59,473 nucleotides of DNA from Candidatus Moraniibacteriota bacterium (GCA_903893925.1 CAITOC010000010.1:1-59473); one strand, 5' to 3'. Numbered from the stretch's first letter, positions 3,895 through 44,729 are shown. Notes: generated from the letters alone by a model not told the origin. A program made the numbers and translations.

Positions 3895-4079
3895 TGAAAA
3901 CGACCCGACTTCAAGAGGGCGATGCGTACGATTCGACGGCATTCGTCGCCTATCAAAATCACGACATGAACAAACGCATCATCCTGCTTTTCGAAGGCTA
4001 AACCTTCGGAAGAGAATCTCAAAAGACTTCCCATTCAATGTCGGTTTCTGCTACACTGTCGATAACAAATCGATCGGAT

Positions 4080-7000
4080 ATGAACAGCGGACGGGTTGCC
4101 ATCATTCCCACTCTTCTCACGCTCTCTTTTTTTGCGCTCTCAATTCCCTCTTTTGCCGACACAATATCCACTCCGGACGACGATGCACCGATTGCGGACA
4201 CGGGAGCGTCTTTTCCGAAGACAGACCCTGCCCTTCCGGTCGAAGATATCGATACGAAGGATGCCGTGATTCTTCCAACAGTGGCGGACGAACCGACACT
4301 ACCCGAACCGGGAAAGCCAGCCGGTGAACCTTCCGCCGATTCAGTTGAGGTCGTACCTGAAAGCGACCCATCTTCTGCCCATGAGTCGCTAAACGAACCA
4401 GCTTCATCCGCAGAGCCTCCGGTCGAAATTCCAGCATCAGAGCCAAAAATGACTCCTCCGGTCGAAGAAACGCCGACAGAAATTCCTCTCGGGACGGAAG
4501 AAGCCGATACTCCCCCGCCGGCCGGGCGCATGATGATGGCCCCGGCTATGCTGTTTGCAGCCGATTCCCCACCGGACACCATCATAAGCGAGGTGCAGAT
4601 AGCCGGTGATGACGCGAATGATGATTTTGTCGAACTCTACAATCCAGGCGATGCGGCATATTCATTGAAAGGATTTGAACTCCGGCGAAAAACCAAGGGT
4701 GATTCGACCCCTACTGGATCATTGTTTCATGCATTCTCGGATTCCGACAGCATACCGGGAAACGGATACTTTCTGTGGGCAAACAAAGATGGCACAGCGG
4801 CGTTCATCGCGATTGCCGACGTGATAAGCAAGAACAAAACATCTCCCGCATTGACCACGGATAACAGCCTTGCCCTGTTCAACTCGAGCAAAACGATGAT
4901 TGCCGCGCTTGCTTGGGGTTCGGGTCATACCAAGCCGTTTACGGCATCAAAAAATACGAATCCCGGAAAAAATCAGAGTCTCGTCTACGATGCCGATAAG
5001 GATTCCTGGTCGATTTCAGATTGTCCGACGCCGACGAACAGCAAAGGCGAAACACCCGATCCAAGCCCGGCCTGCAAGGATTCCGACCCGCCTCCTCCCA
5101 TCGGTACGATCGTCATCAACGAATTTCTCCCGTATCCGAACGCTGGTGAAGAAGAGTGGATCGAGCTTCGTAATACCGGGGTCGAGGAAATCAAACTTGC
5201 AGGATGGAAAATCCAAGACGCCTCAGGAAAGACGTATGCGTTTCCAAAAGCCACGGTCATCGCGGCTGGAGGATTCCTCGTTATCGATGGTTCAACGTCA
5301 TCCATCGCTCTCAATAATGCCGGAGCGGAAAGCGTCATCCTTCTGTTTCCAGACGGAAGTACTGCGGACTCGATATCTTATGACGGAACCGATCAAAACG
5401 TCGCATTCGCACGCACGGACACGGGAACATTCCTCCAGACACATACCCCGACCCGGGGTGCCATAAATGTCTTTGATCCCGAACCGGAGAAAGTCACGCC
5501 TCCTCCCATCGGCACAGTCATCATCAACGAATTTCTCCCGTATCCGAACGCTGGTGAAGAAGAGTGGATCGAGCTTCGTAATACCGGCGATACGGAAATA
5601 TCCCTTGCCGGATGGACGATGAAAGATGCCTCTTCAAGTGCCGGGTATACGTTCCCGGCAGGGACAGTCATAGTTGCGAACGGGTTTTTCATCCTCGGTG
5701 CGGAAACCTCGCTTATCGCACTTAATAATACCGGAGCCGAATCCGTCACGTTATCGTTCCCGGATAAAAGTGTCGCCGACACATATTCCTATGATGGAAC
5801 CGGGCAAGGAGCCACGTATGCACGCACGGACACGGGAACGTTCCTCCTCACGCATATACCGACTCCCAAAGCGACGAATACTTTTGATCCCGAACCGGAG
5901 AAAGTCACGCTTCCGCCGGTCGGCACAGTCATCATCAACGAGCTGTTCCCGAATCCGGCACAGAAGGGCGAGGAGAACGAATGGATCGAGTTGCGCAATA
6001 CCGGAAACATACCCGTCGCACTCGTCGGATGGATACTCCGGTCCGGATCCGGGAAGTTCACCTGGACGAACGACCTGTCGGCGACCCTCCGTGAGATTTC
6101 CGCGAACGGCTACCTCGTCATTGACCGTGCACTTTCGAAACTCGCGCTTCGCAATACCGACGGGGCCGTGACCCTCCTCGCGTCCGACGACATGACGACG
6201 ATGGATTCCGTCTCGTATGGTACGGCGATCGAGGAAGCCTCGTACGGACGGACTCTCTCCGGGACGTTCCGATGGAGCACGACCCTCACGCCGGGATACG
6301 AGAACGTATTTGGCACCGAACCGAAAGCAAAGAAGGCCTCCATTCCGAAGCAGGGGTATGTGAACGCATTCATACCGTTTTCGACGGACGGAAACAAGAA
6401 GAACCTGAAGTATGTCTGGGATTTCGGCGACGGTCACAAGAGTTACCTCGATACGACAAGCCATCGATATGAAAAGACCGGGACCTACGAGGGCACGCTC
6501 ACGACGAGTGACCGCATCGAAGAAACAGTGAGGACGTTCACGATACGGATCGAGAAATACCCGAGGCGCGACCTGCATCTGACCGAGCTTGCTCCCAACC
6601 CGGCCGGGACGGATACCGGCGCCGAGTGGATCAGGATCCGAAACGACGACGTGAAAAAAATAAACCTCTCCGGCTGGATCATCGCCACCGGCTCTGACAA
6701 GGAAAAACTCGTGAATCACGTCATCACTTCGAACCGTTCCCTCGCTCCCGGCGAAGAAATCGCTCTCACGCACGACGATGCGAAGTTCACCCTTCCCAAT
6801 CGGCAAGCCATCATCGAACTGCGTCGACCCGACGGCAAGACCGTACAAACAGTCTCGTATGATGTGGAAAAGGACGTCGCCGAAAATGCCATCTATACCG
6901 AAGTCGGCGATGACACCTGGACCTGGTCGGTTCCGTCGATGAAAGACGTGGACATCGCTCCGGCACCGGAAGAAACGACTGCCGAAACCGTGACGGACAC

Positions 7001-7223
7001 GGCACCATACGAACCAGGACTCTCCGTCGACCCGGATTCGGACCGGCTCACCTTCGGCGAGTTCGTCTCCCTCGGCACGCCATACGATCCCGATCTTCCC
7101 GACGCCCTCCCCCGCGTCCTCGGCGCTTCGGATGAACGACTCCGAAGTGATATGTCATCCTCCGAATCATTTCTCGACTCGCTGTTCCGGGCGCTCAACG
7201 GGTTCATGACGGGAACGACGTGA
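4080..7223 (+). CDS. Secreted surface protein with five lamin-tail domains (LTD) and one PKD domain
   Basis: Signal-like N-terminus from the ATG at 4080 (MNSGRVAIIPTLLTLSFFALSIPSFA). LTD signatures repeat (VIINEFLPYPNAGEEEWIELRNTG x2, INELFPNPA..NEWIELRNTG, ELAPNPAGTDTGAEWIRIRN, FVELYNPG). A PKD motif is present (WDFGDGHKS..HRYEKTGTYEGTL). Confidence 0.85.
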   Translation: MNSGRVAIIPTLLTLSFFALSIPSFADTISTPDDDAPIADTGASFPKTDPALPVEDIDTKDAVILPTVADEPTLPEPGKPAGEPSADSVEVVPESDPSSAHESLNEPASSAEPPVEIPASEPKMTPPVEETPTEIPLGTEEADTPPPAGRMMMAPAMLFAADSPPDTIISEVQIAGDDANDDFVELYNPGDAAYSLKGFELRRKTKGDSTPTGSLFHAFSDSDSIPGNGYFLWANKDGTAAFIAIADVISKNKTSPALTTDNSLALFNSSKTMIAALAWGSGHTKPFTASKNTNPGKNQSLVYDADKDSWSISDCPTPTNSKGETPDPSPACKDSDPPPPIGTIVINEFLPYPNAGEEEWIELRNTGVEEIKLAGWKIQDASGKTYAFPKATVIAAGGFLVIDGSTSSIALNNAGAESVILLFPDGSTADSISYDGTDQNVAFARTDTGTFLQTHTPTRGAINVFDPEPEKVTPPPIGTVIINEFLPYPNAGEEEWIELRNTGDTEISLAGWTMKDASSSAGYTFPAGTVIVANGFFILGAETSLIALNNTGAESVTLSFPDKSVADTYSYDGTGQGATYARTDTGTFLLTHIPTPKATNTFDPEPEKVTLPPVGTVIINELFPNPAQKGEENEWIELRNTGNIPVALVGWILRSGSGKFTWTNDLSATLREISANGYLVIDRALSKLALRNTDGAVTLLASDDMTTMDSVSYGTAIEEASYGRTLSGTFRWSTTLTPGYENVFGTEPKAKKASIPKQGYVNAFIPFSTDGNKKNLKYVWDFGDGHKSYLDTTSHRYEKTGTYEGTLTTSDRIEETVRTFTIRIEKYPRRDLHLTELAPNPAGTDTGAEWIRIRNDDVKKINLSGWIIATGSDKEKLVNHVITSNRSLAPGEEIALTHDDAKFTLPNRQAIIELRRPDGKTVQTVSYDVEKDVAENAIYTEVGDDTWTWSVPSMKDVDIAPAPEETTAETVTDTAPYEPGLSVDPDSDRLTFGEFVSLGTPYDPDLPDALPRVLGASDERLRSDMSSSESFLDSLFRALNGFMTGTT
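7113..7189 (+). repeat. 77-nt direct repeat (copy 1) forming the present 3' end of the LTD gene
   Basis: 7113-7162 is identical to 8936-8985 (50 nt), and 7173-7189 is identical to 8996-9012. The pair flanks the ilvC-like gene. Confidence 0.85.
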
Positions 7224-7301: not shown

Positions 7302-8783
7302 TCAGCCGACATACAGATCTTCTTTCGGAACCAGTTCCAGGCATGTTGCAAGCGACGAGTGAACCGGGTGACCGACAAAGAGCTGGAAAAGAGGCGATCC
7401 AAGAACGCTTTCCGGATTGTTACTGAAATCTTGCAGTACGTCTCCCCAAAGAGAAGACATGAATCGTGGACCCCATTTTTTGGCACCAAGCTGAGCCGTC
7501 GGAGAACAACTGTGAACCATGAAACCCACACCTTTGGCATGCATGAGCGGATTGAGCGACTTGATAGCCTCGATGATCGACTCAAAACAAACTTCAGTCC
7601 ACCAGTGACCATGATCGTGGAGCACATCAACCTGCGCCATCATGATACCGGCGTACAGCCCTGCGACCATCGGGTCGATTACCTTCTCGAAATTCTCACG
7701 GTTCTGGCGGACCCGTTCACCGACAGCCCACATCTCACCGATATCGACCCGCTCCATTGGATGTTCCCTGAGTTGATTCCCGCGCTCGACAACCTCCCGG
7801 ATTTCGTCCCCGGATTCCACCGAAGCGTAGATATCCTCAATCAGTTCCTTCGCCGGACCGTATACCGAAACATATGCCCTGGCAAATATTTTCTGCTCGC
7901 TTCCCGGGAGACCACTATAGAGCCCCAGCAGTCCGCCATGCCGAGAAATGCGATCACTGATCGGACCGGTAATACTTTCTACAGCCAGATTGAACGCCTC
8001 TTCCTCACTGAAGCCAAGTTCGATGAAACGTCGATACGCCATTTCAGCGAGCGCCCAAACGGCGCCAAGCAAGATAGCCCGCTCGCCGGTCAGATCACTC
8101 AAGAACTCCTTCCTGAGCGTCGTAAAGGAACTCAGCGGTGCACCGAGCTGAATTGCCCATGCGATTGCCACATCCAGAGCGCCACCAAGATCGCACTCCA
8201 CCGCGATAGAGCACGGGATACCGGCCCCATTCGTTTCACGACCCTGTTCATACCACAAACGGACGGACGTTCCTACCCCCTTGGGACAGACACCGATCAC
8301 ACTGATGTTGTCCGGGAAATATTCCCCGACGCTCAGCAGGTGACCGAGCAGGAATCCATGCGCGAGACCGAGAATAGCCCCCAATCGCAACGCCGCGAAT
8401 ATCTTCTTATACAGCCGGACTTGCTCCGAATCCGGGATAAGCAATATCACGAAATCGGATTCCGCGATAACGGCGAATGTCTCACCGAGCGTGCCATCCT
8501 TTTCCGTAAAGCCTGCCGCCCTTGCCTTCTGCCGGGAGCCGCTTTCTTCGGGAAGGCCGACTTTTACGACGATACCGGAGCCGACGAGCGATTCGCGAAG
8601 ATTCAGCGCATGAGCGTGTCCCTGCGAACCGAAACCGATAACGGCGATCTGTCTGATTCCTGCCGCACGGAAAACACGGGTCGCGGTGGGGAACATGTCC
8701 CTGCCGCCGACGACGATCCATTCAGCCGCTCCGGGAAACACGAGTTTCCGCATCGGGAAGATATTTGATTGAAAATGATTCAT
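7302..8783 (-). CDS. ilvC: Ketol-acid reductoisomerase, long class II (plant-like) form
   Basis: Start set at ATG 8783, preceded by AGGAGG with a 9-nt spacer. Motifs: VIGFGSQGHAHALNLRES, LGLAHGFLLGHL, VCPKG, SDLTGERAILLG. At ~493 aa it has the length of a class II enzyme with a duplicated C-terminal domain. Confidence 0.85.
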   Translation of the reverse strand: MNHFQSNIFPMRKLVFPGAAEWIVVGGRDMFPTATRVFRAAGIRQIAVIGFGSQGHAHALNLRESLVGSGIVVKVGLPEESGSRQKARAAGFTEKDGTLGETFAVIAESDFVILLIPDSEQVRLYKKIFAALRLGAILGLAHGFLLGHLLSVGEYFPDNISVIGVCPKGVGTSVRLWYEQGRETNGAGIPCSIAVECDLGGALDVAIAWAIQLGAPLSSFTTLRKEFLSDLTGERAILLGAVWALAEMAYRRFIELGFSEEEAFNLAVESITGPISDRISRHGGLLGLYSGLPGSEQKIFARAYVSVYGPAKELIEDIYASVESGDEIREVVERGNQLREHPMERVDIGEMWAVGERVRQNRENFEKVIDPMVAGLYAGIMMAQVDVLHDHGHWWTEVCFESIIEAIKSLNPLMHAKGVGFMVHSCSPTAQLGAKKWGPRFMSSLWGDVLQDFSNNPESVLGSPLFQLFVGHPVHSSLATCLELVPKEDLYVG

Positions 8784-8935
8784 TATGAAGCGCCTCCTGT
8801 TTTTCGACACGGATAAGACCGTGCCTCTGTTAACGAAAAGACCAAGCCCCCGCTTGATTGCAGGAAAATCCTAACAAAAAAGCCTCTCTCCGTCAAGTAA
8901 AAGCACTCGAGCTTAAAGTTTCATTCTTTCAGCCT

Positions 8936-9079
8936 CGCGTCCTCGGCGCTTCGGATGAACGACTCCGAAGTGATATGTCATCCTCTGAGTGGCCTCTCGA
9001 CTCGCTGTTCCGACTGTTGAATTCAACCTGTCTCGAAACCTGGCCGGGGCGACATGACTCTATCCGCGTTATCTATTGA
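8936..9079 (+). pseudogene. Displaced alternative 3' end of the LTD gene (copy 2 of the 77-nt repeat, open to a stop at 9077-9079)
   Basis: Translates as RVLGASDERLRSDMSSSEWPLDSLFRLL...VIY*, matching the present LTD C-terminus RVLGASDERLRSDMSSSESFLDSLFRAL. It has no start codon or upstream gene body. Confidence 0.6.
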
Positions 9080-9747: not shown

Positions 9748-9922
9748 TTTCCCTCCTTTTTCTGGTTGCGTTTCGTTTCAATATTTCAATTCCACATTCT
9801 GGCACGATGACGTTCCGGTTTTGGAAAGAAACATCATAAGCCTTTCAGGGGTCATACGCAATATATGGTTCTGACCGATACGACCGCAATGAAAATTTTT
9901 CTTGCGTTCCCGTCTTCATCCT

Positions 9923-9973
9923 GCTCCCCTGCCGGAGGGGAGCTCCCGAGTCTTCGAGGGTGAGGGGTGGGAG
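9923..9973 (+). repeat. G-rich two-hairpin repeat GCTCCCCTGCCnGAGGGGAGC..GAGGTGAGGGGTGGGAG (copy 1)
   Basis: A near copy lies at 13417-13467. The first hairpin is GCTCCCCT/AGGGGAGC. A partially complementary CCCTCACCC follows at ~10001. Confidence 0.5.
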
Positions 9974-10920: not shown

Positions 10921-10952
10921 GAGCGGGTAACGGGAATTTCGTCCTCGACGCC
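10921..10952 (-). repeat. Copy of the last 17 nt of tRNA-Gly(CCC) plus 15 nt of the tRNA-Gly-associated module
   Basis: gagcgggtaacgggaat matches 11150-11166 and 11348-11364. It is preceded by a copy of the tRNA's downstream terminator hairpin (10888-10915). Confidence 0.7.
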
Positions 10953-11154
10953 CTATCTCAGAATAAACTACCCCGTGGCAAGCCGCGAGGTATCCTCCGA
11001 CTTGTCATCCCGGACTTGATCCGGGATCCAGTCCCACTCCGTGAGACATATCCGCGGCAAGCCGCGAGGAATTAACCCTAAAAGAGATTAAATCTCTAGG
11101 CGGGCCGCCCTGTGGGCGAGCCTCGCTCAAAATTTTCTCCGAAAATTTTGAGCG

Positions 11155-11299
11155 GGTAACGGGAATTTCGTCCTCGACGCCTGCTGACGTCTCGTTGTCC
11201 AGGGCAGCGCTGAATGCTTCCTATCCGGTCGCATTCATCGACGCTCGACTGCGGCGCCTCCGCTTGCGTCTCGCTTCTGCCCGTTCGATTCCCGTTACC
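11155..11299. repeat. 145-bp stem-loop element bounded by 12-bp inverted repeats made of tRNA-Gly T-arm/acceptor sequence
   Basis: GGTAACGGGAAT at 11155-11166 pairs with ATTCCCGTTACC at 11288-11299. The interior 11167-11246 is almost identical to 20966-21045. Confidence 0.6.
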
Positions 11300-11348
11300 A
11301 CAAAGAAAGCAAAAGAGGCCCGATGCGGGTCTCTTTTGCTTTCCTATG

Positions 11349-11419
11349 AGCGGGTAACGGGAATCGAACCCGTGTCCCTAGCTTGGGAAGCTAGTGTACT
11401 ACCATTGTACTATACCCGC
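11349..11419 (-). tRNA. tRNA-Gly(CCC)
   Basis: The reverse complement is GCGGGTATAGTACAATGGTAGTACACTAGCTTCCCAAGCTAGGGACACGGGTTCGATTCCCGTTACCCGCT. It folds as a cloverleaf with anticodon loop TTCCCAA and has no encoded CCA. Confidence 0.9.
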
Positions 11420-11771
11420 CTTCGCTAAAGCTTCGGCAGGGCTCTGCCCGCCTTCGCTACGCTTTGGCGTGGCAAGCCCGCCTTATTCTGCTGTGAGCTC
11501 GGTGCTACCAACTATTCTACCCGCCTACGCTACGCTTCGGCGTGGCGATGCCCGCCACTCACTATTGCTTCCCACGTGGCAATGTCCTCCCTTTCATCAC
11601 TTAACCCGCTCGTTTATCACGTCGTTCTCGAACGACGTGACGAGACTGCAATATTGTAGCACGGAGAAACGTCTTGTAAAGAGCGCTTTCTTTCGGAAAG
11701 AAGCGGGGATATGCTTTTCAAAGCCGGGTTCCCATGCTACGCTGACACTGTAATATCACTCGAAAAACCAC

Positions 11772-13223: not shown

Positions 13224-13260
13224 CCGAAGTCTAAACCTTCGTCGAAGGTTTAGACTTCGG
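13224..13260. terminator. 17-bp perfect palindrome (CCGAAGTCTAAACCTTC gtc GAAGGTTTAGACTTCGG) after the DUF4012 gene
   Basis: The arms pair perfectly around the triloop gtc. A T-run follows ~20 nt later (13275-13281). It belongs to the same family as 1157-1193. Confidence 0.5.
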
Positions 13261-13416
13261 AGAATCTTCGGAAGAGAAGAAGTCTTTTTTCGGCGTCCGT
13301 AATAGGCTGATTCGGGGTTGAAACTTATCCCAAGGAATGCTACGCTCGATATGGAATATTAAGACTCCCAGTTATCTGTTATTAGTTCTCTGTCGGGAGT
13401 TCTTCCCATACTGCCC

Positions 13417-13467
13417 GCTCCCCTGCCTGAGGGGAGCTCCTCGGTTTTGCGAGGTGAGGGGTGGGAG
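13417..13467 (+). repeat. G-rich two-hairpin repeat (copy 2)
   Basis: gctcccctgcctgaggggagctcctcggttttgcgaggtgaggggtgggag; compare 9923-9973. Confidence 0.5.
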
Positions 13468-13560: not shown

Positions 13561-15303
13561 ATGCCTTACGACCTCTCCACTGTCCGCCACTCCCTTGCGC
13601 ACATCCTCGCAATGGCCATTCTCAAGCGTGATCCGGGGGCAACACTCGGCACCGGGCCCTCGACCGAGGACGGTTTTTTCTACGATATCCTTTTTTCTGA
13701 GGGACAAAACGTCTCTCCAGACGATTTCAAGTCGATCATCGAAGATATGCGCTCGATCGTGAAAAAGAAGCTCCCGTTCGTCCAAAGATTACTGACCGCG
13801 GATGAAGCTCGGGAGCTCTTCAAAAAAAATCCGTTCAAGCTCGAAATCATCGGTGAAGCCGAGTCACGTGGCGAAGACATCACCATATTTGAGACGGGCG
13901 ATTTCGTCGATCTGTGTGCCGGACCGCATGTCGAGAACACGGGCGACATCGATTTACTCTCCTTCTCACTCAAGGGTCTTGCCGGTGCGTACTGGCGTGG
14001 CGACGAGCAGAATCCGATGCTGGTCCGTATCTCGGGGTTCGCCTTCGAAAACAAGTCCGCCCTCGTCGCGCATCTCGCTTTGCTCGAAGAAGCCAAAAAA
14101 CGCGATCACCGTAAACTCGGAAAGGAACTCAATCTCTTCACCATTTCCCCGCTCGTGGGCGCGGGACTTCCGCTCATGCAGCCCAAAGGCATGATCATCC
14201 GCCAGAAGATCGAAGATCTTCTCTGGAAACTCCACGAGGACAAGGGCTATTCACGCGTCTGGACCCCGCATATCGCGAAGGAAGAGCTCTATGTCACGTC
14301 CGGACATGCCGCCAAGTTCGGCGACGAACTCTTTCGCGTCACAGGCAAGGAAGAACAGTTCATCATGAAGCCGATGAACTGCCCGCACCACATGCAGATC
14401 TTCGCGGACAACCGGTTCTCGTATCGCGATCTCCCGGTCCGCTATTTCGAGCCGGCTACCGTGTATCGTGACGAAAAATCCGGCCAGCTCGGAGGCCTCA
14501 CCCGCGTGCGTGCCATCACCCAAGATGACGGTCATCTTTTCTGTCGTGTCTCACAAATCAAGGAGGAGGTCTCGACTATCGTCTCGATCATCCGGGAATT
14601 TTACACGATCTTCGGACTCATGGACGGGTATTGGGTCTCACTCTCGGTCCGAGGCGAGGATAAGGAAAAATACCTGGGCAGTGATGAGGCATGGGACAAT
14701 GCCGAGAGCGCGCTTGAGAACGCTGCCAAGGAGAACGATCTCAATTACAGACGGGTCGAGGGTGAGGCCGCCTTCTACGGACCCAAGCTCGACTTCATGT
14801 TCAAGGACGCCATCGGCCGGGAATGGCAACTCGCTACCATTCAGTGCGACTTCAACCTGCCCGAGCGCTTCGACCTCTCGTTCACGAACGAAGAGGGCGT
14901 AGCCGAGCGTCCGGTCGTGATACATCGTGCCATCTCGGGTTCGCTCGAGCGGTTCATGGGTATCATGATCGAGCACTATGCCGGTGCATTCCCCTTCTGG
15001 CTTTCCCCGGTCCAAGTCGATATCCTCCCGATCGGTGAGGCTCATCAGGCGTACGGAGCCGAAGTCACGACACTCCTCAAGAAGGCCGGTATCCGTACCG
15101 AACTCCATGCTGAGAACGAATCCCTCGGCAAGCGCATCCGCAATGCCAAAGTCGGCAAAGTGCCGTACTATATCGTCTTAGGCGACGCGGAAGTCACGAG
15201 CCAAACCGTCACTCTCGAAAGCCGCACCGACGGCAAGATCGGCGAACTCTCCCACGACGACCTCCTTACGCGATTTGCAAAGGAAAATATCCCCGCTGCC
15301 TGA
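13561..15303 (+). CDS. thrS: Threonine--tRNA ligase lacking the N-terminal TGS domain
   Basis: ORF trimmed to ATG 13561 (MPYDLSTVRHSLAHILAMAI). Starts at the editing-domain HxxxH motif. Class II core motifs are present (FIMKPMNCPHH, LTRVRAITQDDGHLF, GEAAFYGPKLDF). Confidence 0.92.
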   Translation: MPYDLSTVRHSLAHILAMAILKRDPGATLGTGPSTEDGFFYDILFSEGQNVSPDDFKSIIEDMRSIVKKKLPFVQRLLTADEARELFKKNPFKLEIIGEAESRGEDITIFETGDFVDLCAGPHVENTGDIDLLSFSLKGLAGAYWRGDEQNPMLVRISGFAFENKSALVAHLALLEEAKKRDHRKLGKELNLFTISPLVGAGLPLMQPKGMIIRQKIEDLLWKLHEDKGYSRVWTPHIAKEELYVTSGHAAKFGDELFRVTGKEEQFIMKPMNCPHHMQIFADNRFSYRDLPVRYFEPATVYRDEKSGQLGGLTRVRAITQDDGHLFCRVSQIKEEVSTIVSIIREFYTIFGLMDGYWVSLSVRGEDKEKYLGSDEAWDNAESALENAAKENDLNYRRVEGEAAFYGPKLDFMFKDAIGREWQLATIQCDFNLPERFDLSFTNEEGVAERPVVIHRAISGSLERFMGIMIEHYAGAFPFWLSPVQVDILPIGEAHQAYGAEVTTLLKKAGIRTELHAENESLGKRIRNAKVGKVPYYIVLGDAEVTSQTVTLESRTDGKIGELSHDDLLTRFAKENIPAA

Positions 15304-15338
15304 AACCACTGCAAAGAAAAGCAGCGAGTCATTAAATA

Positions 15339-15375
15339 AGAGACGAGGCCTTTCAGAGAGGTCTCGTCTCTTTTC
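15339..15375. terminator. Bidirectional hairpin terminator inside the islet
   Basis: AGAGACGAG..CTCGTCTCT followed by TTTC. On the minus strand it is followed by TTATTTAAT. It lies between the thrS stop and the 15393 gene stop. Confidence 0.5.
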
Positions 15376-15392
15376 AATAGAGTCTCGTCTGC

Positions 15393-16079
15393 TTATTCAT
15401 CCAGCCTGAACGTTCCCACTATTTCCTCCATAGTCCTCAAGCTGTCCTGATCATTTTCAGTGAATGCCAAATGAAAAACATAAAATTGATCACTGTTCTT
15501 GAAAATAATCGCCGAACGAGGTGAAGAATCAGTCGTGCCCAAGGAAAGATATTCTTTGCCGATAAGATTGCCCGCCTGAAATACGAAACTTTGCGTCCCA
15601 ACTTCTTGGGTAAATCCAAGCGAAACTGCCAGCTGATCGATATCCGTATCGGTTTTTTCATACATGATCATTCCCACCAGTCGAAAATCCTGTGGTCGCG
15701 ACTCCTCTGCATATTCAATAGAATCCTTATTGGACCAAAAAACTGAACTGCCTTGCTTGGCCTTTTCTCCGTTTCCAAGATCGACTTCCGTCAAAGCGGT
15801 CGTGTCAGCATCATCGGCAAAGATGTGCCAGTCTTTGGGATAATTGAGGCTATAGGAAAACGCCGAATTTTGATACGCTTGCCAATCGGATTCGCTTTTT
15901 GCATTTGTCAAACTCGGATTTTTGTAATCTTGCGTAAAACCTTCCTGGGTCAATTGCTGTTTTATTTTTTTATTTTTATACACTCCAAACAAGCCAACAG
16001 CTAAAATAATCAACACCGCCAAAGCGATACCGATGACTATTCTTTTTTTGGTGAAAATCTTTTTTATTTCAAATTTCAT
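15393..16079 (-). CDS. Hypothetical membrane-anchored exported protein
   Basis: 228-aa ORF with an N-terminal TM helix (IVIGIALAVLIILAVGLFGV). It lies in an AT-rich segment. No domain was recognised. Confidence 0.6.
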   Translation of the reverse strand: MKFEIKKIFTKKRIVIGIALAVLIILAVGLFGVYKNKKIKQQLTQEGFTQDYKNPSLTNAKSESDWQAYQNSAFSYSLNYPKDWHIFADDADTTALTEVDLGNGEKAKQGSSVFWSNKDSIEYAEESRPQDFRLVGMIMYEKTDTDIDQLAVSLGFTQEVGTQSFVFQAGNLIGKEYLSLGTTDSSPRSAIIFKNSDQFYVFHLAFTENDQDSLRTMEEIVGTFRLDE

Positions 16080-16089
16080 ATTGCAGGTT

Positions 16090-16123
16090 AGGAGTTCGAC
16101 TCCCTATAGGGAGTCGAACTCCT
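16090..16123. repeat. 15-bp-stem palindrome AGGAGTTCGACTCCC tata GGGAGTCGAACTCCT
   Basis: A second copy lies at 34644-34679. The arm AGGAGTTCG is shared with the ~90-nt repeat family. Confidence 0.6.
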
Positions 16124-16145
16124 TTATTTCTTTTTATCGTAAGTT

Positions 16146-18050
16146 TTACCACGTGCAAGTGGTCGTGCCGTCCGAGGTAAAGACCCATGTCGTCGATCCA
16201 CCCTTACAAACACACGTCCGATACCCACTCGTGAGTGCAATCGTTCCATCATGTGTCGCATCGCACGCATACGGTTGCGCCGATTCCTTTTTCAATTTCA
16301 CTTCCCCATTGACATCCAACGTCGCAGCCGGAGAAGTGGTGCCGATGCCAACGTTGCCAGCATTCGAAATATACATTCTATCGTAGTACGCACCTGATGT
16401 GTAGGTCGCAAATTTTACCGCATTAGCACCAGATACCCGCATATCACCATCGCTGGCAAGCCAACCAAAATATGTCCCCGGTACAGAATATCCGTCATAT
16501 TTCAGCATCACATGATCTGTGCTATCTGGTGATTCTAAGTAAATACCTGTCATTTTATTACCTGAGGCTGCTTTGGCTTGGAATGGGAATGTACCTCCTT
16601 TATCTGGTGAAACCAAACCTATTATTATGCGCCCATCATCAGCAATATCAAAAAATTTCGTCCCACTGGGTGTATACCCCTCAAATAGATGCCCAGTCTG
16701 CGCAACTCCCATGACTGTTTTCAATATTGGGTTAGTTTGGAAGAGGGTTCCAGTAACAGTAAGTTCTGGCACACCAACGCTACCCGCTATTTGTACGCCA
16801 CCATCAGTGCCGCTGGTTGCAGTCGCGGCCCCAGCAACATTGTTTGTATAAACAGTGAGAGAGAGAAGTCCCGCGCTGTCTTTTTTTTCTAAATAAACAT
16901 TTGCTCCAAATTGAGTCGCGCTAACCAATGGGCCAAGCGTGGCATTTCCATTAATTGCAGTGGCCAAATTGACAGCACACGCAGAGTTAGACCCCGCACT
17001 AACACACTGAAAGGATGTCCCCTCAGTAAGGGCTATTGATGTTCCATTAACGGCAGTCTGAAAAATTTTCCCCCCGGTGCTACTGTAATCGACAATAGTG
17101 TAGAATCGTCGCCCTACACCACCTGCAAGTTTTAATGCAGCACCAGTTGTATTCGTTGTGGATTGCGACCATGCGGATTGACCCATAAGCATAGTAGCGG
17201 CAGGCGGCACATCTGAGGCGACTGCTCCGCTGACAATCGCATTGCCCCGGACGTCTAACTTCGCTCCAGCTGCTGTCGTCCCAATCCCTACATTTCCAAG
17301 ATTAACCAAATTCTTTCCATTCAAATCAATTGCTCCAGTTGCGCCGGAATATGGAATCGCTCCGACCTGGCCAGCGGTGAGGCCGGTGATTTTCGAACCA
17401 TCCAAAGCTGCATATGCCCCGGTCAAGTTGTCAGCGATGAATGTCTGACCAGTCGCCCAGTTCAAAATCCCACCCAAGGCTCCACCCGTTGTCGAGAGTT
17501 TGCCAGACAATGAACTATCCAGACCGCTGATTTGACCAGTTTGCAAACCGGTGATTTTCGAACCGTCGAGTGCTGCAAATGCGCCGGTCAAATTATCAGC
17601 CGAAAAAGTCTGATTGCTCGCCCAATTCAAAATACCAGAAAGAGCACCGCCACTCGGGGAAAGTTTTCCAGCCAATAATGCGACCAGTCCATCTACCTGA
17701 TTTACGCTCACATTTCCCGATTGAGAATTATTTGAGGCTATTATCTTTTCCTGAATTAAATCATCCAAGCCACGAATTTTACTTGTTCCTAATCCACCAT
17801 CTTTTACAGCTTGATCATCAATTGAGCCTTTCTTGAGATGAAAACTTGAAAAAACTCCTTTCCAATCATCGCTTTTTTTCTTGATTTCCGAGAGCACATA
17901 TTTTTCCGCATTCTTCTTGACCGCATCCGCTTCAATTTTTGTAAAATACGTTTTCCAATAATTTTTGGCAGGCGCGCTTTCTGCTGCTCGTGCATTCATC
18001 CCAAACACCAAAAAACCGGCCCCGAAAAAAATCAGCGCCAGCCTGAGCAC
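16146..18050 (-). CDS. Secreted tail-fibre-like repeat protein
   Basis: GTG start at 18050 followed by a signal-like LRLALIFFGAGFLVFGMNARA. Tandem ~48-aa repeats (GKLSxxGGALxGILNWAxxQTFxADNLTGAxAALDGSKITGL). GNVGIGTTxxxAxLDVxG motifs recur as in phage fibre / endosialidase-associated proteins. The C-terminus is Cys-rich. Confidence 0.65.
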   Translation of the reverse strand: MLRLALIFFGAGFLVFGMNARAAESAPAKNYWKTYFTKIEADAVKKNAEKYVLSEIKKKSDDWKGVFSSFHLKKGSIDDQAVKDGGLGTSKIRGLDDLIQEKIIASNNSQSGNVSVNQVDGLVALLAGKLSPSGGALSGILNWASNQTFSADNLTGAFAALDGSKITGLQTGQISGLDSSLSGKLSTTGGALGGILNWATGQTFIADNLTGAYAALDGSKITGLTAGQVGAIPYSGATGAIDLNGKNLVNLGNVGIGTTAAGAKLDVRGNAIVSGAVASDVPPAATMLMGQSAWSQSTTNTTGAALKLAGGVGRRFYTIVDYSSTGGKIFQTAVNGTSIALTEGTSFQCVSAGSNSACAVNLATAINGNATLGPLVSATQFGANVYLEKKDSAGLLSLTVYTNNVAGAATATSGTDGGVQIAGSVGVPELTVTGTLFQTNPILKTVMGVAQTGHLFEGYTPSGTKFFDIADDGRIIIGLVSPDKGGTFPFQAKAASGNKMTGIYLESPDSTDHVMLKYDGYSVPGTYFGWLASDGDMRVSGANAVKFATYTSGAYYDRMYISNAGNVGIGTTSPAATLDVNGEVKLKKESAQPYACDATHDGTIALTSGYRTCVCKGGSTTWVFTSDGTTTCTW

Positions 18051-18073
18051 GGTTTTGGATTTTCTACCTTTTA

Positions 18074-18091
18074 AGAGAGAGAGAGAGAGAG
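18074..18091. repeat. (AG)9 dinucleotide microsatellite, 24-41 nt upstream of the tail-fibre-like gene start
   Basis: agagagagagagagagag counted directly and anchored by the translation of ORF 17965..18156. Confidence 0.9.
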
Positions 18092-18273
18092 GATTTCATA
18101 TATATAACATTCAGGAGGATTTGGATAATACGTACCTCAAATATAGCATGTTTTGAACGGTTGCTCAAACTGCAGTGGCAACCGTGTCAGTGGCAACCGC
18201 AGTGGTCACACAGGGAACGCATCGAGCAGTTCACTGGAATAGGAAAACTCGTAACCGAGCGAGCCGAGCTACA

Positions 18274-18609
18274 TCATTGGGAATGAAACGAAAGGAGCGT
18301 CTCTCGCAACTTTGGCAGATCTTCCTTGCAAGTCTGCCACACGAATATCGCATCCACACCGGTGTATTCGTGTATGAGAATATTCCTCATACCGATGATA
18401 TCCCGAAATGGGATCTCGGCATGTTCCTGCTCAAATAAACGACTCAAACGATTCGTGGCTTCCCCAACAATCATAAGCTCCCGAATGGTCGCGTCTATAA
18501 GGAGATCGGATTTCAAGAAATCCTCGGATTCGACGCCATTCAGATACTTCTCGATTTTCCCGATTGCCTCGAGGATATGCCCGATATACAACGTGTCGTT
18601 CTTTTTCAT
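18274..18609 (-). CDS. hepT: HepT (DUF86) family toxin
   Basis: 111 aa. IIGMRNILIHEYTGVD fits the Rx4HxY motif. It overlaps the upstream MNT gene by 4 nt. Confidence 0.8.
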   Translation of the reverse strand: MKKNDTLYIGHILEAIGKIEKYLNGVESEDFLKSDLLIDATIRELMIVGEATNRLSRLFEQEHAEIPFRDIIGMRNILIHEYTGVDAIFVWQTCKEDLPKLRETLLSFHSQ

Positions 18610-18917
18610 ACGTTTTTCTCGTATACCGACTCTGCATACGAAAGTACATCATCGCGAATGAATTTACTGAGCGCTGTCGGCGTAGCGATATCGACTTTCT
18701 TCTGCAGTCGATTGGAAAAATACCGGTGTATGCCGGCATATTCGAATAATCCGATCCGAGCAAGCGGAGTGAATTCGATCAGCAAATCAACATCGCTATC
18801 CTCACGCGACGTGCCATTGGCGTGCGATCCAAACAAAGATACCTTCCGTATATCATCCCGAAATTCGCTTTGTTCGACTGCTTCCCTGATTTTTTCCTTG
18901 AGTTCCTGTTTGCTCAT
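18606..18917 (-). CDS. mntA: MNT nucleotidyltransferase antitoxin
   Basis: ORF trimmed to ATG 18917 (MSKQELKEKI). LFGSHANGTSREDSDVDLLIEF fits the GSxxxGxxxxxSDxD nucleotidyltransferase motif. Confidence 0.8.
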   Translation of the reverse strand: MSKQELKEKIREAVEQSEFRDDIRKVSLFGSHANGTSREDSDVDLLIEFTPLARIGLFEYAGIHRYFSNRLQKKVDIATPTALSKFIRDDVLSYAESVYEKNV

Positions 18918-19012
18918 AGAGATTCCATTCGATACTGCCAGTATCCGACATTTTTGGAGAAAAATCAATATATATACCTCGGAGCAGAGCCCTGAGGTAT
19001 GTCTCGAATGAA

Positions 19013-19130
19013 CCAAACCGTCACCCTCGAGAGCCGTGCCGACGGCAAGATCGGCGAACTCTCCCACGACGACCTTCTTACGCGATTTGCAAAAGAGAAC
19101 ATCCCGGGAGCCTGCGTTCCCCTGAAATAA
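19013..19130 (+). pseudogene. Displaced 3' fragment of thrS (last ~38 codons, own stop)
   Basis: 19013-19105 aligns with 15201-15293. It translates as QTVTLESRADGKIGELSHDDLLTRFAKENIPGACVPLK*, against QTVTLESRTDGKIGELSHDDLLTRFAKENIPAA* in the live gene. Confidence 0.8.
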
Positions 19131-19146
19131 AACCCGTGTAAAAGAT

Positions 19147-19177
19147 AAGACTCAACCCTCGTCGAAGGTTGAGTCTT
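19147..19177. terminator. Bidirectional hairpin terminator (probable original thrS terminator, also serving the FKBP gene)
   Basis: AAGACTCAACC..GGTTGAGTCTT, with T-rich tracts on both strands. Confidence 0.5.
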
Positions 19178-19261
19178 TAAAGTCCTCTACAAAACAGGGT
19201 CGTGAGAGATTCCCTGTTATCTGTTATCTGTTATCTTCTCCCTGCTAACGGTCATCTATTC

Positions 19262-19930
19262 TTATTTGATCGACAAGAGTTCGACATCGAAGATGAGTGT
19301 CGCATTCGGCGGGATAGAGCCCTGGCCGCTCGCTCCATACCCGAGCGATGCCGGGATGGTCAGTTTCCGCTTCTCCCCGACTTTCATATCCAAAAGACCC
19401 TGGTCCCACCCTTTGATCACCATGCCCTGTCCGAGCGTGAACTGAAATGGGGTCCTCCCTGGATTGAGGCTCGAATCGAACTTCGTCCCGTCCGTGAGTG
19501 TCCCCGTATAATTCACGGTGATCGTATCACCGTTCTTCGTCTTCGCATCTCCTGTCCCGTCGGCCGTCTTCTCGATCTGCAGTTCGGTAACCATAGGACT
19601 TGTCTTATTGGTTGATGTCGTCGTATCCGTTCCATTTCCTCCCGATCCGCCGTTGTCAGATGGTTGTGGCACGGGTTGTTCTCCGGAACCACTCCCACTG
19701 TCGGCCGAAACCGTATTCCCGTGTCCGATATCCGTCACCCCGGTGGTACCGGCACTCCCCGCCGCCGCCCCGATCGACCGCGATGCTTGCCCGGTGGTTT
19801 TCACCTCGATCGTACTCCGATTGCCTTTCGATTCATCCGGGAGCAGCCGGCCTTTCCCGGGTGTCCCGACCAGTATCCAGACGACCACAGCGAACGCAAT
19901 CACTCCCAACAAAAGAAATAGTCTGTTCAT
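19262..19930 (-). CDS. FKBP-type peptidyl-prolyl cis-trans isomerase, membrane anchored with G/S/T-rich linker
   Basis: The C-terminal domain reads [71 protein letters not shown]. Confidence 0.85.
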
Positions 19931-20953: not shown

Positions 20954-21045
20954 GGTGATGGGAATTTCGTCCTCGACGCCTGCTGGCGTCTCGTTGTCCA
21001 GGGCAGCGCTGAATGCTTCCTATCCGGTCGCATTCATCGACGCTC
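20954..21045 (-). repeat. 92-nt tRNA-Gly-associated module (3' 12 nt of tRNA-Gly(UCC) plus 80-nt conserved cargo)
   Basis: It differs from 11155-11246 at 3 positions by my alignment. Two of these track the acceptor/T-stem difference between the two tRNA-Gly genes. Confidence 0.7.
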
Positions 21046-26486: not shown

Positions 26487-26717
26487 GAAAGGAGGTCACC
26501 AGCATGCCCCGTGACCGATCCTCCAGCTGGCGGGGAGGTTTTACGGGGTCACCAGCCTGCCCCGTAGTCGCATTACGACAGTACAGAGTCACCCGCCCTC
26601 ACTATTGTTTCGTCGTGGAAGAGAAAATCAGGAACGGAAGATGAGACTCGTACAGAAGTAAATTGATTTATTCCAGTTTGCTATTCCGGAGCTATGCTCC
26701 GTCTCAATGCGGTGCTG

Positions 26718-26807
26718 ATACCAAATGAACTGAATCACTGTTACGTTCAGGAGTTCGCCCCGGCATTCGCGGGGCGGACTCCTCCGGTAGCGATATACAA
26801 CACATCA
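26718..26807 (+). repeat. ~90-nt hairpin repeat family, copy A
   Basis: ATACCAAATGAACTGAATCACTGTTACGTTCAGGAGTTCGCCCCGGCATTCGCGGGGCGGACTCCTCCGGTAGCGATATACAACACATCA. An inverted ATTTGGTATC at 26833-26842 mirrors its 5' end. Confidence 0.8.
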
Positions 26808-26844
26808 AGTTATTTCGGCATAATTTAATTAATTTGGTATCACT

Positions 26845-27590: not shown

Positions 27591-27680
27591 ATACCAAATT
27601 AACTAAATCCCTGTTACGTTCAGGCGTTCGCCCCGGCATTCGCAAGGCGAACTCCTCTGATAGCGATATTCAACACATCA
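27591..27680 (+). repeat. ~90-nt hairpin repeat family, copy B (between tig and clpP)
   Basis: ataccaaattaactaaatccctgttacgttcaggcgttcgccccggcattcgcaaggcgaactcctctgatagcgatattcaacacatca. The reverse complement of its 5' end, extended into the flank, gives TGGTATAAC about 11 nt upstream of the clpP ATG. Confidence 0.8.
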
Positions 27681-30283: not shown

Positions 30284-30504
30284 AGTGTTACTGATATTGT
30301 CACGCTTCCGAATATATCGGAACGCGACACTGTTTAATGACGTATGAATCACACGGAAGCAAGTTGGAGACGGGTCTCTTTTTGAACCGAGAACGGCCCT
30401 CTAAAGAAAAAAGTCCGCTCGCGCGAACTCCGTCACCATCCCTATCCGTATGACCACAGTATAGGGCGAAACGGGACTTCTGTCAAATGGCTGAAGTATG
30501 GATA

Positions 30505-30574
30505 ATACCAAATGAACTGAATCACTGTTACGTTCGGGAGTCGGACTCCTCCGGTAGCGATATACAACACATCA
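30505..30574 (+). repeat. ~90-nt hairpin repeat family, copy C (hairpin tip deleted)
   Basis: ataccaaatgaactgaatcactgttacgttcgggagtcggactcctccggtagcgatatacaacacatca. Confidence 0.8.
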
Positions 30575-30748
30575 CGTTTTATCGGAATACGTTCCACTTG
30601 CAACAATCTTACAAGACCATTACCGGAGCTCACCCCGCCCTTCGTGAAGAGCATGGCGAACTCCGCTCAGATTATTTAGTTGAATAATGCCTTTTAAAAG
30701 CCATAATCCGTCAATTTTTGTCCGATTTTCCATTTTCTCACACATTGA

Positions 30749-33139: not shown

Positions 33140-34093
33140 TTATGCCGTTCCCGAAAGGAGCGCGGTGACAGTGCGGACAACGATGAGTGACAAGACGATG
33201 ACCGCGATACCCATGATTGCGAATTTCACGATACTCTTGGCCGTTTCGGCACGTTTCTCGTCACCTGCGGCGGCAAAGAACATGAATCCGCCGATGACGA
33301 GCATGATCATCGCGAGCAGTCCCGAAACGCCGAGAAGGAAGTTCAGGAGACCCTGGACGATTTCGACCACGGACTTGGCGCTGCTCACCTCGGTCGGCAC
33401 CTGCGCACTCCCCCATCCGAGTACGTCGCCGACCGCCTTAAGCAAAGACGGTGCGACCACGCCGATCGCGAGGCCGATCATCGCCGCGGTAATCATCTTC
33501 TTGGCAGTACCGATCTTCTTCTCATCGCCGGCCGACGTGATATAGAAGATGCCACCGAGCACGAGGAAGAGCAGTGCGAGCCAGACGATGATACCCTGGA
33601 AGGCCGTGAGGAACACCGCCGTCGCCCCCTGGACGGTATCGAATGCGAGTGGATTCGTGAATGTGACGGAAGAAGTGCCTCCGCCCGTCGTGCCGGTTCC
33701 GCAACATATCTGGCTCGCCGAAGTGCAGGTTCCCGATTGTATCGTCAGGCCTCCCGTACAGGTAGTCCCCGTCTGGCATGTCCCCGTACAGGCACCGCCA
33801 ACAGTCCCATAGGTGGCATCATAATTGGCATCGGGGACGGTAGCGAGAGGCGTGGCCGTCACGCCATATTGGAACTTCGGACGACCGGAACACTGTGAGT
33901 TACAAAGCTTCTGCGTATCCTCGAAAGAGGAAGAGTCTACCGTGGTGCCATCGGCCTGCACACAGGCGCAATTCATTCCCGCCGGCATGGTTGCCGCGAA
34001 AGCGGTCATCGGGACGACACCTGAGAAAAGAAAAACGAGCGAACCAAAAAGAAAGAAAGCAGAGCGAACGGATGATGGGATATTTGTATGCAT
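33140..34093 (-). CDS. Fused double T4SS-type (TrbC/VirB2-like) pilin with Cys-rich N-terminal head
   Basis: Signal peptide, then a Cys-rich ~130-aa region (CACVQADGT..CNSQC..), then two tandem two-helix pilin units, each centred on an (S/A)AGDEK(K/R) loop (YITSAGDEKKIGTAKK and FFAAAGDEKRAETAKS). Confidence 0.7.
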   Translation of the reverse strand: MHTNIPSSVRSAFFLFGSLVFLFSGVVPMTAFAATMPAGMNCACVQADGTTVDSSSFEDTQKLCNSQCSGRPKFQYGVTATPLATVPDANYDATYGTVGGACTGTCQTGTTCTGGLTIQSGTCTSASQICCGTGTTGGGTSSVTFTNPLAFDTVQGATAVFLTAFQGIIVWLALLFLVLGGIFYITSAGDEKKIGTAKKMITAAMIGLAIGVVAPSLLKAVGDVLGWGSAQVPTEVSSAKSVVEIVQGLLNFLLGVSGLLAMIMLVIGGFMFFAAAGDEKRAETAKSIVKFAIMGIAVIVLSLIVVRTVTALLSGTA

Positions 34094-34151
34094 ATTTTTT
34101 GATAAAACGTCCCGTAAGAAACGACTGCGAAAAAATATCGACTGGTATCAA

Positions 34152-34583
34152 TCAATAGGTCGTCGTCGAGGAACTTGCCGTGACGAGTTGCTCTATGGTG
34201 TAGACGACTACATAACCGAGGAGCGCGACCGCGACACCGATAATCGCATATTTGATATTCCCTTTTGCTGCTTCGGTCCCCTTCTCATCACCACCGGCCG
34301 TAAGGTATTGGAATCCGGCCACCACGAACATGATGATGGCGATAAATCCGAGCATGCCGAGGAGCCAGTTCATGACATTGGTAATCACCTGTCCCGCCGA
34401 CGTTTCCGGCAGGCCGGTCGACGTGCCGGAGGGGACGCAGACTCCGCCCATGGCAGTACTGTTGGCATCGCAGGTCACCGCGGCAAGAGCGCCGTGCGAT
34501 GCGAGGACCGCCGATACGAGGACCACGAGAGACAGGATACGAAGGCCGATCAGTCTGAGTGTTTTGGTATGATATACGTTCAT
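34152..34583 (-). CDS. T4SS-type (TrbC/VirB2-like) pilin
   Basis: ORF trimmed to ATG 34583 (signal MNVYHTKTLRLIGLRILSLVVLVSAVLASHGALA). Core NVMNWLLGMLGFIAIIMFVVAGFQYLTAGGDEKGTEAAK. Ends ...SSSTTTY. Confidence 0.7.
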   Translation of the reverse strand: MNVYHTKTLRLIGLRILSLVVLVSAVLASHGALAAVTCDANSTAMGGVCVPSGTSTGLPETSAGQVITNVMNWLLGMLGFIAIIMFVVAGFQYLTAGGDEKGTEAAKGNIKYAIIGVAVALLGYVVVYTIEQLVTASSSTTTY

Positions 34584-34643
34584 ATTTTTGTCTTCGATCG
34601 TCATCGACAGATGAAACTTTTTTGCTTGATCGATCCTGTACGC

Positions 34644-34679
34644 AAGGAGTTCGACTCCCTCTTGGGAGTCGAACTCCTT
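34644..34679. repeat. 16-bp-stem palindrome AAGGAGTTCGACTCCC tctt GGGAGTCGAACTCCTT
   Basis: Same arms as 16090-16123. It lies between two pilin genes. Confidence 0.6.
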
Positions 34680-34810
34680 ATAGGTGGTATACGGCAAACC
34701 AAATTATTTTAGCATGGGAGCGATCTTCCCATTCATCATACCGCACGGACAAAAAAAGACAACCCCGCTCATGCGGAGTCGCCCTCTTTTCTTGTTGTTG
34801 CCGACCGGAA

Positions 34811-35212: not shown

Positions 35213-35255
35213 GCGTTCACCTCCTTTCCGTTTTGTGATTGTTTCGACGCGTTCA

Positions 35256-44502: not shown

Positions 44503-44603
44503 AAACATCAGGTATTCTCATTTTCAAGGAGCCTGAAATCCTCTCGGGTATTGATGTCGTAGACCTGTTTTCCGTCACAATTTGTTGGCTGTAATCAGTT
44601 CTA

Positions 44604-44689: not shown

Positions 44690-44729
44690 TAGGTTGTTTC
44701 GGTATAAGTTGTCAGTTGTCAGTCTTCCT

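Follow-up and report, generated by a model that had tools for sequence, protein, structure and literature searches.

The 3′ end of thrS, the gene for threonyl-tRNA synthetase (ThrS), occurs twice in a 59,473-nt stretch of DNA (CAITOC010000010.1 of GCA_903893925.1; ENA sample ERZ1426720), hereafter the window, which is a chromosomal piece from an uncultured member of Candidatus Moranbacteria, within the Candidate Phyla Radiation (CPR)/Patescibacteria. The two copies enclose a 3,706-nt islet (15304-19009) which, with a probability of about one half, is best read, instead of as an autonomous integrative element, as a recombination scar in the Moranbacteria chromosome at which accessory genes are now swapped. 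This reading draws on the duplication itself, a break in base composition, the lack of a recombinase gene, a gene remnant inside the islet, a cargo polymorphism with breakpoints where the distal copy begins or ends, and a footprint of the same kind at a second locus of the window. An earlier note, made from the sequence alone, had likened the islet to elements that integrate into a gene 3′ end and restore it, as tRNA-targeting islands do, and had mentioned a Campbell-type single crossover as an alternative; it is this alternative, i.e., homologous recombination, that proved the better half of its interpretation.

Two thrS termini around an AT-rich islet

The last 105 nt of thrS (copy A, which forms the functional end of the gene) recur beyond the islet as copy B with 89% identity (self-BLAST E=2.8e-32), so that the repeat of ~93 nt first described is real and slightly longer. 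The two copies differ at 12 positions, their longest identical run being 37 nt. At the codon level, 11 of the 33 codons differ, one more than had been counted before; eight of the changes are synonymous, exactly as listed in the earlier note, and three are non-synonymous (S/N, T/A, and A/G), giving a ratio of non-synonymous to synonymous divergence (pN/pS) of 0.10. As had also been noticed, copy B keeps the thrS frame up to a TAA stop (19128-19130), within an open reading frame (ORF) of 40-43 codons (18999-19130), the original stop position having changed from TGA to TGC. A profile search with nhmmer returned no degenerate extra copies of the terminus besides A and B.

For comparison, 80 CPR thrS loci were compiled (these and further loci are numbered L001, L002, and so on; L081 belongs to the same genome as L003, and L088 is the same as L083). 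The nearest ones in a species-representative genome set are from Moranbacteria metagenome-assembled genomes (MAGs), with ThrS identities of 88-92%. The thrS ends of relatives are closer to B than to A (mean identities of ~83% and ~79%, respectively), eight of the 12 A/B differences, once polarised, are derived on A, and the last seven codons of B are those of the native thrS of L002. Sequence comparison therefore suggests, with moderate confidence, that B is the resident terminus and that A came with the cargo, in line with the earlier view of the distal copy as the original end. That view had been argued from the synonymous nature of most changes, which alone is no proof of import: A and B of one genome carry common lineage-specific codons, rank as each other's top match or close to it, and are 84-92% identical when the relatives are included, a pattern that requires either gene conversion or very closely related donors.

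The sequences that follow the two copies differ in type. The hairpin downstream of A, with the arms GACGAGGC...GCCTCGTC, occurs only once in the window and is also found directly after thrS in L001, L005, and L006; A and its terminator are thus the genuine thrS end of some lineage. A terminator at 15339-15375 had previously been ascribed to the cargo; the hairpin does exist, and its orthology to native thrS terminators of other species shows that it is not private to the inserted DNA. Conversely, the hairpin at 19147-19177, which had been taken as the original thrS terminator, is present as described, and the T-run lies on its minus strand, so that it is better read as the terminator of the converging gene for an FKBP-type isomerase. 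A reading of the distal flank as the sole native one, suggested by L002 and L004, does not stand, given the orthology of the proximal hairpin to the thrS terminators of L005 and L006. As far as sequence similarity tells, each of the two flanks is like the native thrS end of a different lineage.

Between the two copies, the DNA is foreign in composition. The G+C content of the islet is 45.3%, compared with 53.3% in the window, and is as a fraction (0.453) the minimum of all 3.7-kb segments along the sequence (mean 0.529, sd 0.019); the G+C content at third codon positions (GC3) of the cargo genes is 0.41-0.58, versus 0.63-0.71 for the neighbouring core genes. This sliding analysis confirms the compositional break that had earlier been proposed from the visible AT-richness. 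The cargo is also as had been listed, namely a membrane protein, a fibre-like protein, and an MNT/HepT pair, all antisense to thrS. The 634-aa fibre-like protein has a weak tail-fibre hit in PHROG and weak matches to 8oml and 8ond, which are fibre adhesins of Bdellovibrio. Its homologues number only 17, and some of them have a Peptidase_S74 domain; its gene contains an internal 129-nt repeat (17383-17511 and 17548-17676) and is found as a 617-aa allele in other strains (L082 and L087 loci). It appears to be a fast-evolving surface protein. The HepT/MNT pair (18274-18917) is a typical type VII toxin-antitoxin system, in which both Pfam domains are present along with the motifs Rx4HxY and GSx10DxD and the genes overlap by 4 nt (18606-18609; the gene-caller product for MNT is 103 aa), and is only a passenger here.

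The islet also contains a remnant of a 390-aa gene, which directly adjoins the HepT stop. In L001, L003, L004, and L006, this gene lies intact between thrS and the FKBP gene. The presence of its tail within the islet indicates that the islet is chromosomal DNA of a relative and no discrete element, contrary to what had been assumed of an integrated unit; part of it would be ancestral DNA from downstream of some thrS, and it was in the donor lineage that HepT/MNT took the place of most of the 390-aa gene. Consistent with the statement that no integrase or recombinase lies in the islet, a Pfam scan of its ORFs found neither, and no integrase, resolvase, or transposase was detected by the same means in the islets of L001 and L003 or in the other large ORFs of the 59-kb window. 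A recombinase is also missing from the gene tables of related contigs.

Cargo exchange at the site and a second locus

Among the 80 CPR loci, only the two closest, L001 and L003, have a second copy of the thrS end. Their islets carry different cargo, a single antisense AAA_14/DUF4143 ATPase gene (PADLOC PDC-S01, 1.9e-141), and the left edge of the distal copy varies by no more than a few bases between the window, L001, and L003. The L001 and L003 loci share 87% identity in thrS, 83% in A, and 77% in B, while a 1.2-kb stretch of cargo is 96-100% identical, this high identity stopping at the left edge of B. The cargo must therefore have moved between lineages recently, its repeats remaining host-like. 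The same figures count against the proposal that a surrogate terminus is borne by the element, since two species whose proximal termini share only 83% have ATPase cargos with 96-100% identity. A 105-nt target-site duplication formed at insertion was also considered and rejected, the divergence between A and B (8-16%) being far greater than that of the cargo between hosts (1-4%).

Cargo polymorphism at the site, on which the earlier note had made its proposal depend, was found both between and within species. Population variants within the species were recovered by exact-protein look-ups (the exact ThrS protein is present in 297 blocks of the assembly collection) and fall into three arrangements. 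The common one is that of the window. In the second (L086 and L085), the FKBP gene and copy B agree fully with the window (100% identity) as far as base 19009, from where an ATPase cargo takes over, which shares 95-98% identity with the one in L001 and L003. Both types of cargo join between TG and AACC, with decayed thrS similarity reaching ~21 nt further upstream at the ATPase-type junction than at that of the window type. The third arrangement (L088 and L096, from two samples) matches the window at ~100% identity between ~11600 and 19030. Somewhere between codons 5 and 7, its copy B gives way to a different allele, B′, which ends in GGAGCCTGA and is followed by the 20 nt that come after thrS in L001 and L003, a noncoding repeat block, and dciA-dnaN-dnaA. 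The switch implies that the distal copy has undergone an internal crossover with a thrS end that belongs to a different context.

Exact look-up additionally returned a ThrS allele ending in ENIPGA on a 2.2-kb contig, and a metagenome scan with a degenerate pattern of the terminus gave one contig only, identical to L003. No circular form of the islet and no empty thrS site were found in the look-ups; the repeats are, as said, 89% identical. The 1528-nt contig with ATPase cargo (L092) was examined as a candidate circle and discarded, since its ends do not overlap and it represents a piece of an L001-like locus. The idea that the ATPase gene always stands beside a thrS end was likewise rejected, since a homologue of 81% identity sits in another context.

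A comparable footprint exists elsewhere in the window, at an unrelated gene. The 3′ end of a gene for an LTD/PKD surface protein (4038-7223) is duplicated (7110-7189 and 8933-9012, 91% identity), with antisense cargo between the two copies. L081 represents the empty site for this locus; its native gene end is orthologous to the distal copy, in keeping with a distal resident terminus, and the proximal tail differs in sequence from the native tail. In L087, the distal copy is ~45 nt shorter, so that the junctions differ by ~45 nt. The occurrence of the footprint at an unrelated gene, together with junctions that are not fixed, points to recombination anchored in a conserved gene rather than to a site-specific enzyme. 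As a side observation, the cargo here, a ketol-acid reductoisomerase gene of branched-chain amino-acid metabolism, is unusual for a CPR genome.

How the islet may have formed, and what else could explain it

Under the favoured explanation, DNA from a related lineage would have recombined into the resident chromosome, with the left crossover inside the conserved thrS. The incoming DNA would have consisted of a thrS 3′ end, its own terminator, and the sequence downstream of thrS in the donor, that is, the two surface-protein genes, the tail of the 390-aa gene, and the HepT/MNT pair. The right junction, probably illegitimate, would have formed ~105 nt before the resident stop, thereby displacing the resident terminus as the distal copy and leaving thrS intact. 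Alternatively, a circular fragment may have entered by a Campbell-type single crossover; either route would add the thrS end and downstream genes of a relative. A possible order of events is that an older event gave rise to the ATPase-type structure, that the 390-aa gene was lost in the lineage of the window, and that a later import of the window type joined at the start of B, which would make B identical in both cargo types. From then on, the copies would have acted as homology arms, allowing cargo exchange among strains and species and patchy homogenisation by gene conversion, and in an islet-free genome the end of thrS could serve as a pairing partner for the distal copy. We infer in this scheme which way the import went, that the first junction on the right was illegitimate, and that recombination of the RecA type drives the process.

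Several results weigh against this scheme. No donor sequence came up in genome and metagenome scans, and sliding identity along the thrS body displays no divergence step that would mark the left crossover. No A/B excision hybrid of ThrS, i.e., a thrS ending in the B tail, was seen in exact look-ups of predicted proteins, and the 37 nt of perfect identity between the copies are a poor substrate for frequent RecA exchange. Moreover, the high identity of the ATPase cargo ends a few bases from the left edge of B in four lineages, with the window-type junction within ~21 nt, a tightness beyond that of random crossovers which leaves room for a site-specific process. Finally, the duplication is common to three species-level lineages, which is compatible with a single ancient origin as well as with repeated origins.

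The room left for an enzyme corresponds to a classical site-specific islet at the thrS 3′ end, with an attachment site (attP) that carries a surrogate terminus and an integrase since lost or acting in trans. Direct repeats at both ends of the islet with thrS kept intact, a distal left edge that is nearly identical for two unrelated cargos in three species, the spread of the ATPase cargo between species with a sharp right end, and a cargo composition unlike that of the chromosome would all be expected of such an islet. It is nonetheless unlikely in view of the recombinase searches, negative for every islet and the 59-kb window, of repeats that are just 84-92% identical within a genome, of proximal termini that are host-like (83%, versus 96-100% for the cargo), and of the chromosomal gene remnant. 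Nor are the junctions strictly fixed, either at thrS, where similarity extends ~21 nt further upstream in the ATPase type, or at the second locus, where they differ by ~45 nt; together with the missing integrase, this leaves the tRNA-island-like element of the earlier note unsupported. A scan of viral contigs for the core of the thrS terminus gave 0 hits, and no phage or plasmid attP candidate came to light. Doubtful to a similar degree is a local origin, in which an ancient duplication in the ancestor of the three lineages (e.g., a tandem duplication of the thrS end and the 390-aa gene) was followed by insertions and deletions, with no import. The restriction of the second copy to the three closest lineages agrees with it, as do the three derived alleles (GAG, CGT, and GCC) that B of the window has in common with B of L003 and the fact that A and B of one genome are the most alike; a duplication that included the 390-aa gene would also account for a remnant inside the islet of the window and an intact gene outside those of L001 and L003. 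What it leaves unexplained are the downstream flanks, with terminators of different types that each match native terminators of different species, the foreign composition of the cargo, the proximal tail at the second locus, which is unlike the native one, and the B-like copy in L088/L096, whose flank is the native one of a different thrS context.

A further way to account for the persistence of the distal copy is that it was kept as a gene, encoding a 40-43-aa micro-protein that corresponds to the C-terminal strand-helix of the anticodon-binding domain of the synthetase, with a start codon and ribosome-binding site supplied by the cargo. Both cargo types do offer an in-frame ATG, located 12 nt ahead of the repeat edge and preceded by AGGT; the ORF is called by gene callers, pN/pS among B copies is 0.17-0.26, and no lineage has a frameshift. 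This coding-like pattern is, however, explained by gene conversion from A, and the changes derived on B (12 non-synonymous and 11 synonymous, versus 5 and 11 on A) indicate relaxed constraint. In addition, the stop has drifted, by +5 codons in the window and as far as a 99-aa reading in L003, a promoter scan found no plus-strand promoter-like site upstream, and the product has no Pfam hit and, as an isolated 40-aa fragment of a fold, is unlikely to fold alone, all of which makes a micro-protein very improbable. An assembly chimera, a concern already voiced in the earlier note, would have joined two strains at their common thrS-end sequence; the region is indeed polymorphic in the population and contigs of relatives (L002 and L092) break at the site. 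Yet numerous contigs with this arrangement were obtained independently, from different samples and with two assemblers, which indicates that the structure is no such artefact, the copies differ at 12 positions and so cannot be collapsed, and sister species have the same architecture, leaving this explanation a practically negligible chance.

The recombination-scar reading also has a more far-reaching form, tentative and rather improbable as it stands, in which copies of conserved gene 3′ ends are portable homology arms that make integrase-free islets self-propagating at several genes, in this window at thrS and the LTD/PKD gene, or else are the target of an unrecognised gene-end-targeting enzyme. 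A cassette ending in a copy of the target terminus would enter a related genome by recombination alone, the displaced resident terminus would become the arm for the next transfer, and gene conversion would match the arms to their host.

Known systems and other features of the window

Some genomic islands integrate site-specifically at the end of a tRNA or protein-coding gene, which they restore; examples are SGI1 at the trmE 3′ end (PMC8409611) and dusA-targeting islands at the dusA 5′ end (PMC4482086). The thrS islet is like 3′-end islands of the SGI1 type in being an AT-rich accessory segment at the end of a housekeeping gene, with direct repeats and an intact gene. Unlike them, it lacks an integrase, has long repeats (105 nt) with a divergence of 8-16%, shows no co-variation between proximal terminus and cargo, and includes a chromosomal gene remnant; its junctions, moreover, are not strictly fixed. 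A closer parallel is offered by homology-facilitated illegitimate recombination, known from natural transformation in Acinetobacter, Streptococcus pneumoniae, and Pseudomonas stutzeri (PMC3240628), in which one homologous anchor and an illegitimate far junction add foreign DNA without a dedicated recombinase, and with variable junctions, as at the second locus. In the window, homologous anchoring is reflected in the thrS left flank together with an islet that holds the 390-aa gene remnant and a thrS terminator of another species' type, and the use of the distal copy as a homology arm in the mosaic B′ allele of L088/L096. Two differences are that the process is known mainly from laboratory crosses, whereas it would here have left natural footprints in uncultured CPR bacteria, and that the junction lies inside the 3′ end of the target gene, with a displaced terminus that persists and may later be reused.

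At the wzy locus of Salmonella Typhimurium, next to thrS, a segment flanked by 113-bp direct repeats undergoes reversible, integrase-less excision (PMC12074656). Both cases involve a few kb of cargo between direct repeats of ~110 bp and no identified integrase, and recombination between the repeats leads to presence/absence polymorphism in Salmonella. The Salmonella repeats are, however, perfect, intergenic, and located upstream of thrS, with circles and empty sites demonstrated, whereas those of the window are coding, diverged, and at the 3′ end.

Displaced gene ends are also a feature of rhs and cdiA toxin genes, whose 'orphan' C-terminal modules are found downstream, the old 3′ end having been left as a fragment. 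By analogy, a new 3′ end with its linked genes may have been acquired at thrS through recombination in the conserved upstream part; unlike rhs and cdiA, thrS is a housekeeping gene with a conserved tail, and the payload is the downstream cargo rather than the tail.

The finding is real and informative without forming a new category. It amounts to a flexible hotspot, free of an integrase and probably driven by recombination, which betrays itself by a displaced gene terminus and of which the window has two examples. CPR/Patescibacteria have tiny genomes with few recognisable mobile elements, and how they acquire accessory genes is poorly understood. At thrS, an essential gene, surface-fibre, toxin-antitoxin, and candidate defence genes are exchanged next to the 3′ end, both among strains of one species and from one species to another, with no recombinase seen. 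If this is general, displaced gene termini could serve as a simple marker of flexible hotspots and cargo donors in MAGs, and would point to homologous recombination, probably after DNA uptake, as the process that chiefly drives gene flux in this group. AT-rich cargo beside a duplicated gene end should not, on its own, be taken as indicative of an integrase-type island.

Table 1. Positions of the features discussed in the thrS region and at the LTD/PKD locus of the window
Feature	Position	Strand	Evidence or remarks
LTD/PKD gene 3′ end, proximal copy	7110..7189	+	Self-comparison
Antisense cargo, ketol-acid reductoisomerase	7302..8783	-	AAA_33 kinase instead in L087
Displaced original terminus and native terminator	8933..9078	+	Orthologous to uninterrupted gene end in L081
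thrS (threonyl-tRNA synthetase, 580 aa, no TGS domain)	13561..15303	+	Pfam tRNA_SAD, tRNA-synt_2b, HGTP_anticodon
Copy A, proximal thrS terminus (functional thrS end)	15198..15302	+	Self-comparison, codon alignment
thrS terminator hairpin (GACGAGGC...GCCTCGTC type)	15338..15372	+	-24.4 kcal/mol, z -6.2
Cargo, 228-aa membrane-anchored protein	15393..16079	-	Sub-threshold PsbP_2 match; GC3 0.43
Cargo, 634-aa secreted fibre-like surface protein with internal repeats	16146..18050	-	No Pfam family
Remnant of 390-aa gene, last 20 codons and stop	18206..18268	-	BLASTN to L001, L003; translation LGSLGYEFSYSSELLDAFPV, then stop
Cargo, HepT toxin (RNILIHEY motif)	18274..18609	-	Pfam HepT-like 8e-26
Cargo, MNT antitoxin (GSx10DxD; GSHANGTSREDSDVD in translation)	18606..18917	-	Pfam NTP_transf_2 6e-12; PADLOC PDC-S09
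Copy B, distal thrS terminus	19010..19114	+	100% identical in strains with another cargo
Hairpin after copy B	19147..19177		-16.6 kcal/mol, z -3.4; T-run on minus strand (FKBP side)
CCCTGTTATCTGTTA motif	19207..19236	+	Also after native thrS terminator of L004
FKBP-type isomerase gene, conserved right-hand neighbour	19262..19930	-	Pfam; gene order in relatives

Upstream of thrS, the conserved neighbour is a DUF4012 gene, and downstream, in L005, the FKBP gene follows thrS after 145 nt. The motif CCCTGTTATCTGTTA (13367, 13474, and 19212-19233 in the window; 5649 in L004) is limited to the region upstream of thrS and that after the distal copy of the thrS end, with four hits, versus 0.5 expected, and may be a regulatory site tied to thrS. 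The 5′ leader of thrS also contains one member of a 55-nt direct repeat (85%; 9920-9973 and 13414-13467), the other member being upstream of another gene, and this repeat may represent a common leader or regulatory RNA element.

The whole thrS region lies between two 92-nt direct repeats, R1 and R2 (11155-11246 and 20954-21045; three mismatches), which stand beside two tRNA-Gly genes. Each begins with a partial 3′ end of the neighbouring tRNA and has an inverted copy further on, in the manner of miniature inverted-repeat transposable elements. L098 corresponds to the window minus exactly the 9.8 kb between R1 and R2, a block that comprises tRNA-Gly(ccc), the DUF4012 gene, thrS, the islet, the FKBP gene, and a 257-aa gene, and L089 carries the reciprocal R1/R2 junction, as a circle or tandem. 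Unlike for the islet, both recombination products are thus present for this block and, as thrS is presumably essential, it must lie elsewhere in genomes of the L098 type.

The window also encodes a pilin cluster of the type IV secretion system (T4SS) type and a VirB4/TraG-like ATPase (33140-35284 and 51243-53915), possibly a machinery for DNA transfer or uptake that would be relevant to the entry of foreign DNA. It is inside a T4SS-pilin gene that L085 (GCA_903994715.1) has an unusual join: at 10923-11600, its ATPase cargo ends after 668 nt and continues, inverted, into position 34558 of the window, as the result of either an inversion or a MAG misassembly. One copy of a terminator-like hairpin is located ~90 nt from this breakpoint. 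Such near-identical palindromic hairpins form two families at unrelated loci, one at 1153-1193, 13224-13264, and 19147-19177, and the other at 16090-16124 and 34645-34679.

A conserved noncoding block of ~200 nt is shared by the end of the window (59320-59473), the thrS islet of L001 (11790-12010), and L083 (9300-9470, by dciA). Rfam models detected only tRNAs in the window and four loci, leaving this block without a family; it may be a small RNA or a repeat that mediates rearrangements. Lastly, an interspersed family of intergenic repeats of ~100 nt, 76-90% identical, has members at 26712-26826, 27591-27680, 30503-30593, and 44598-44710.

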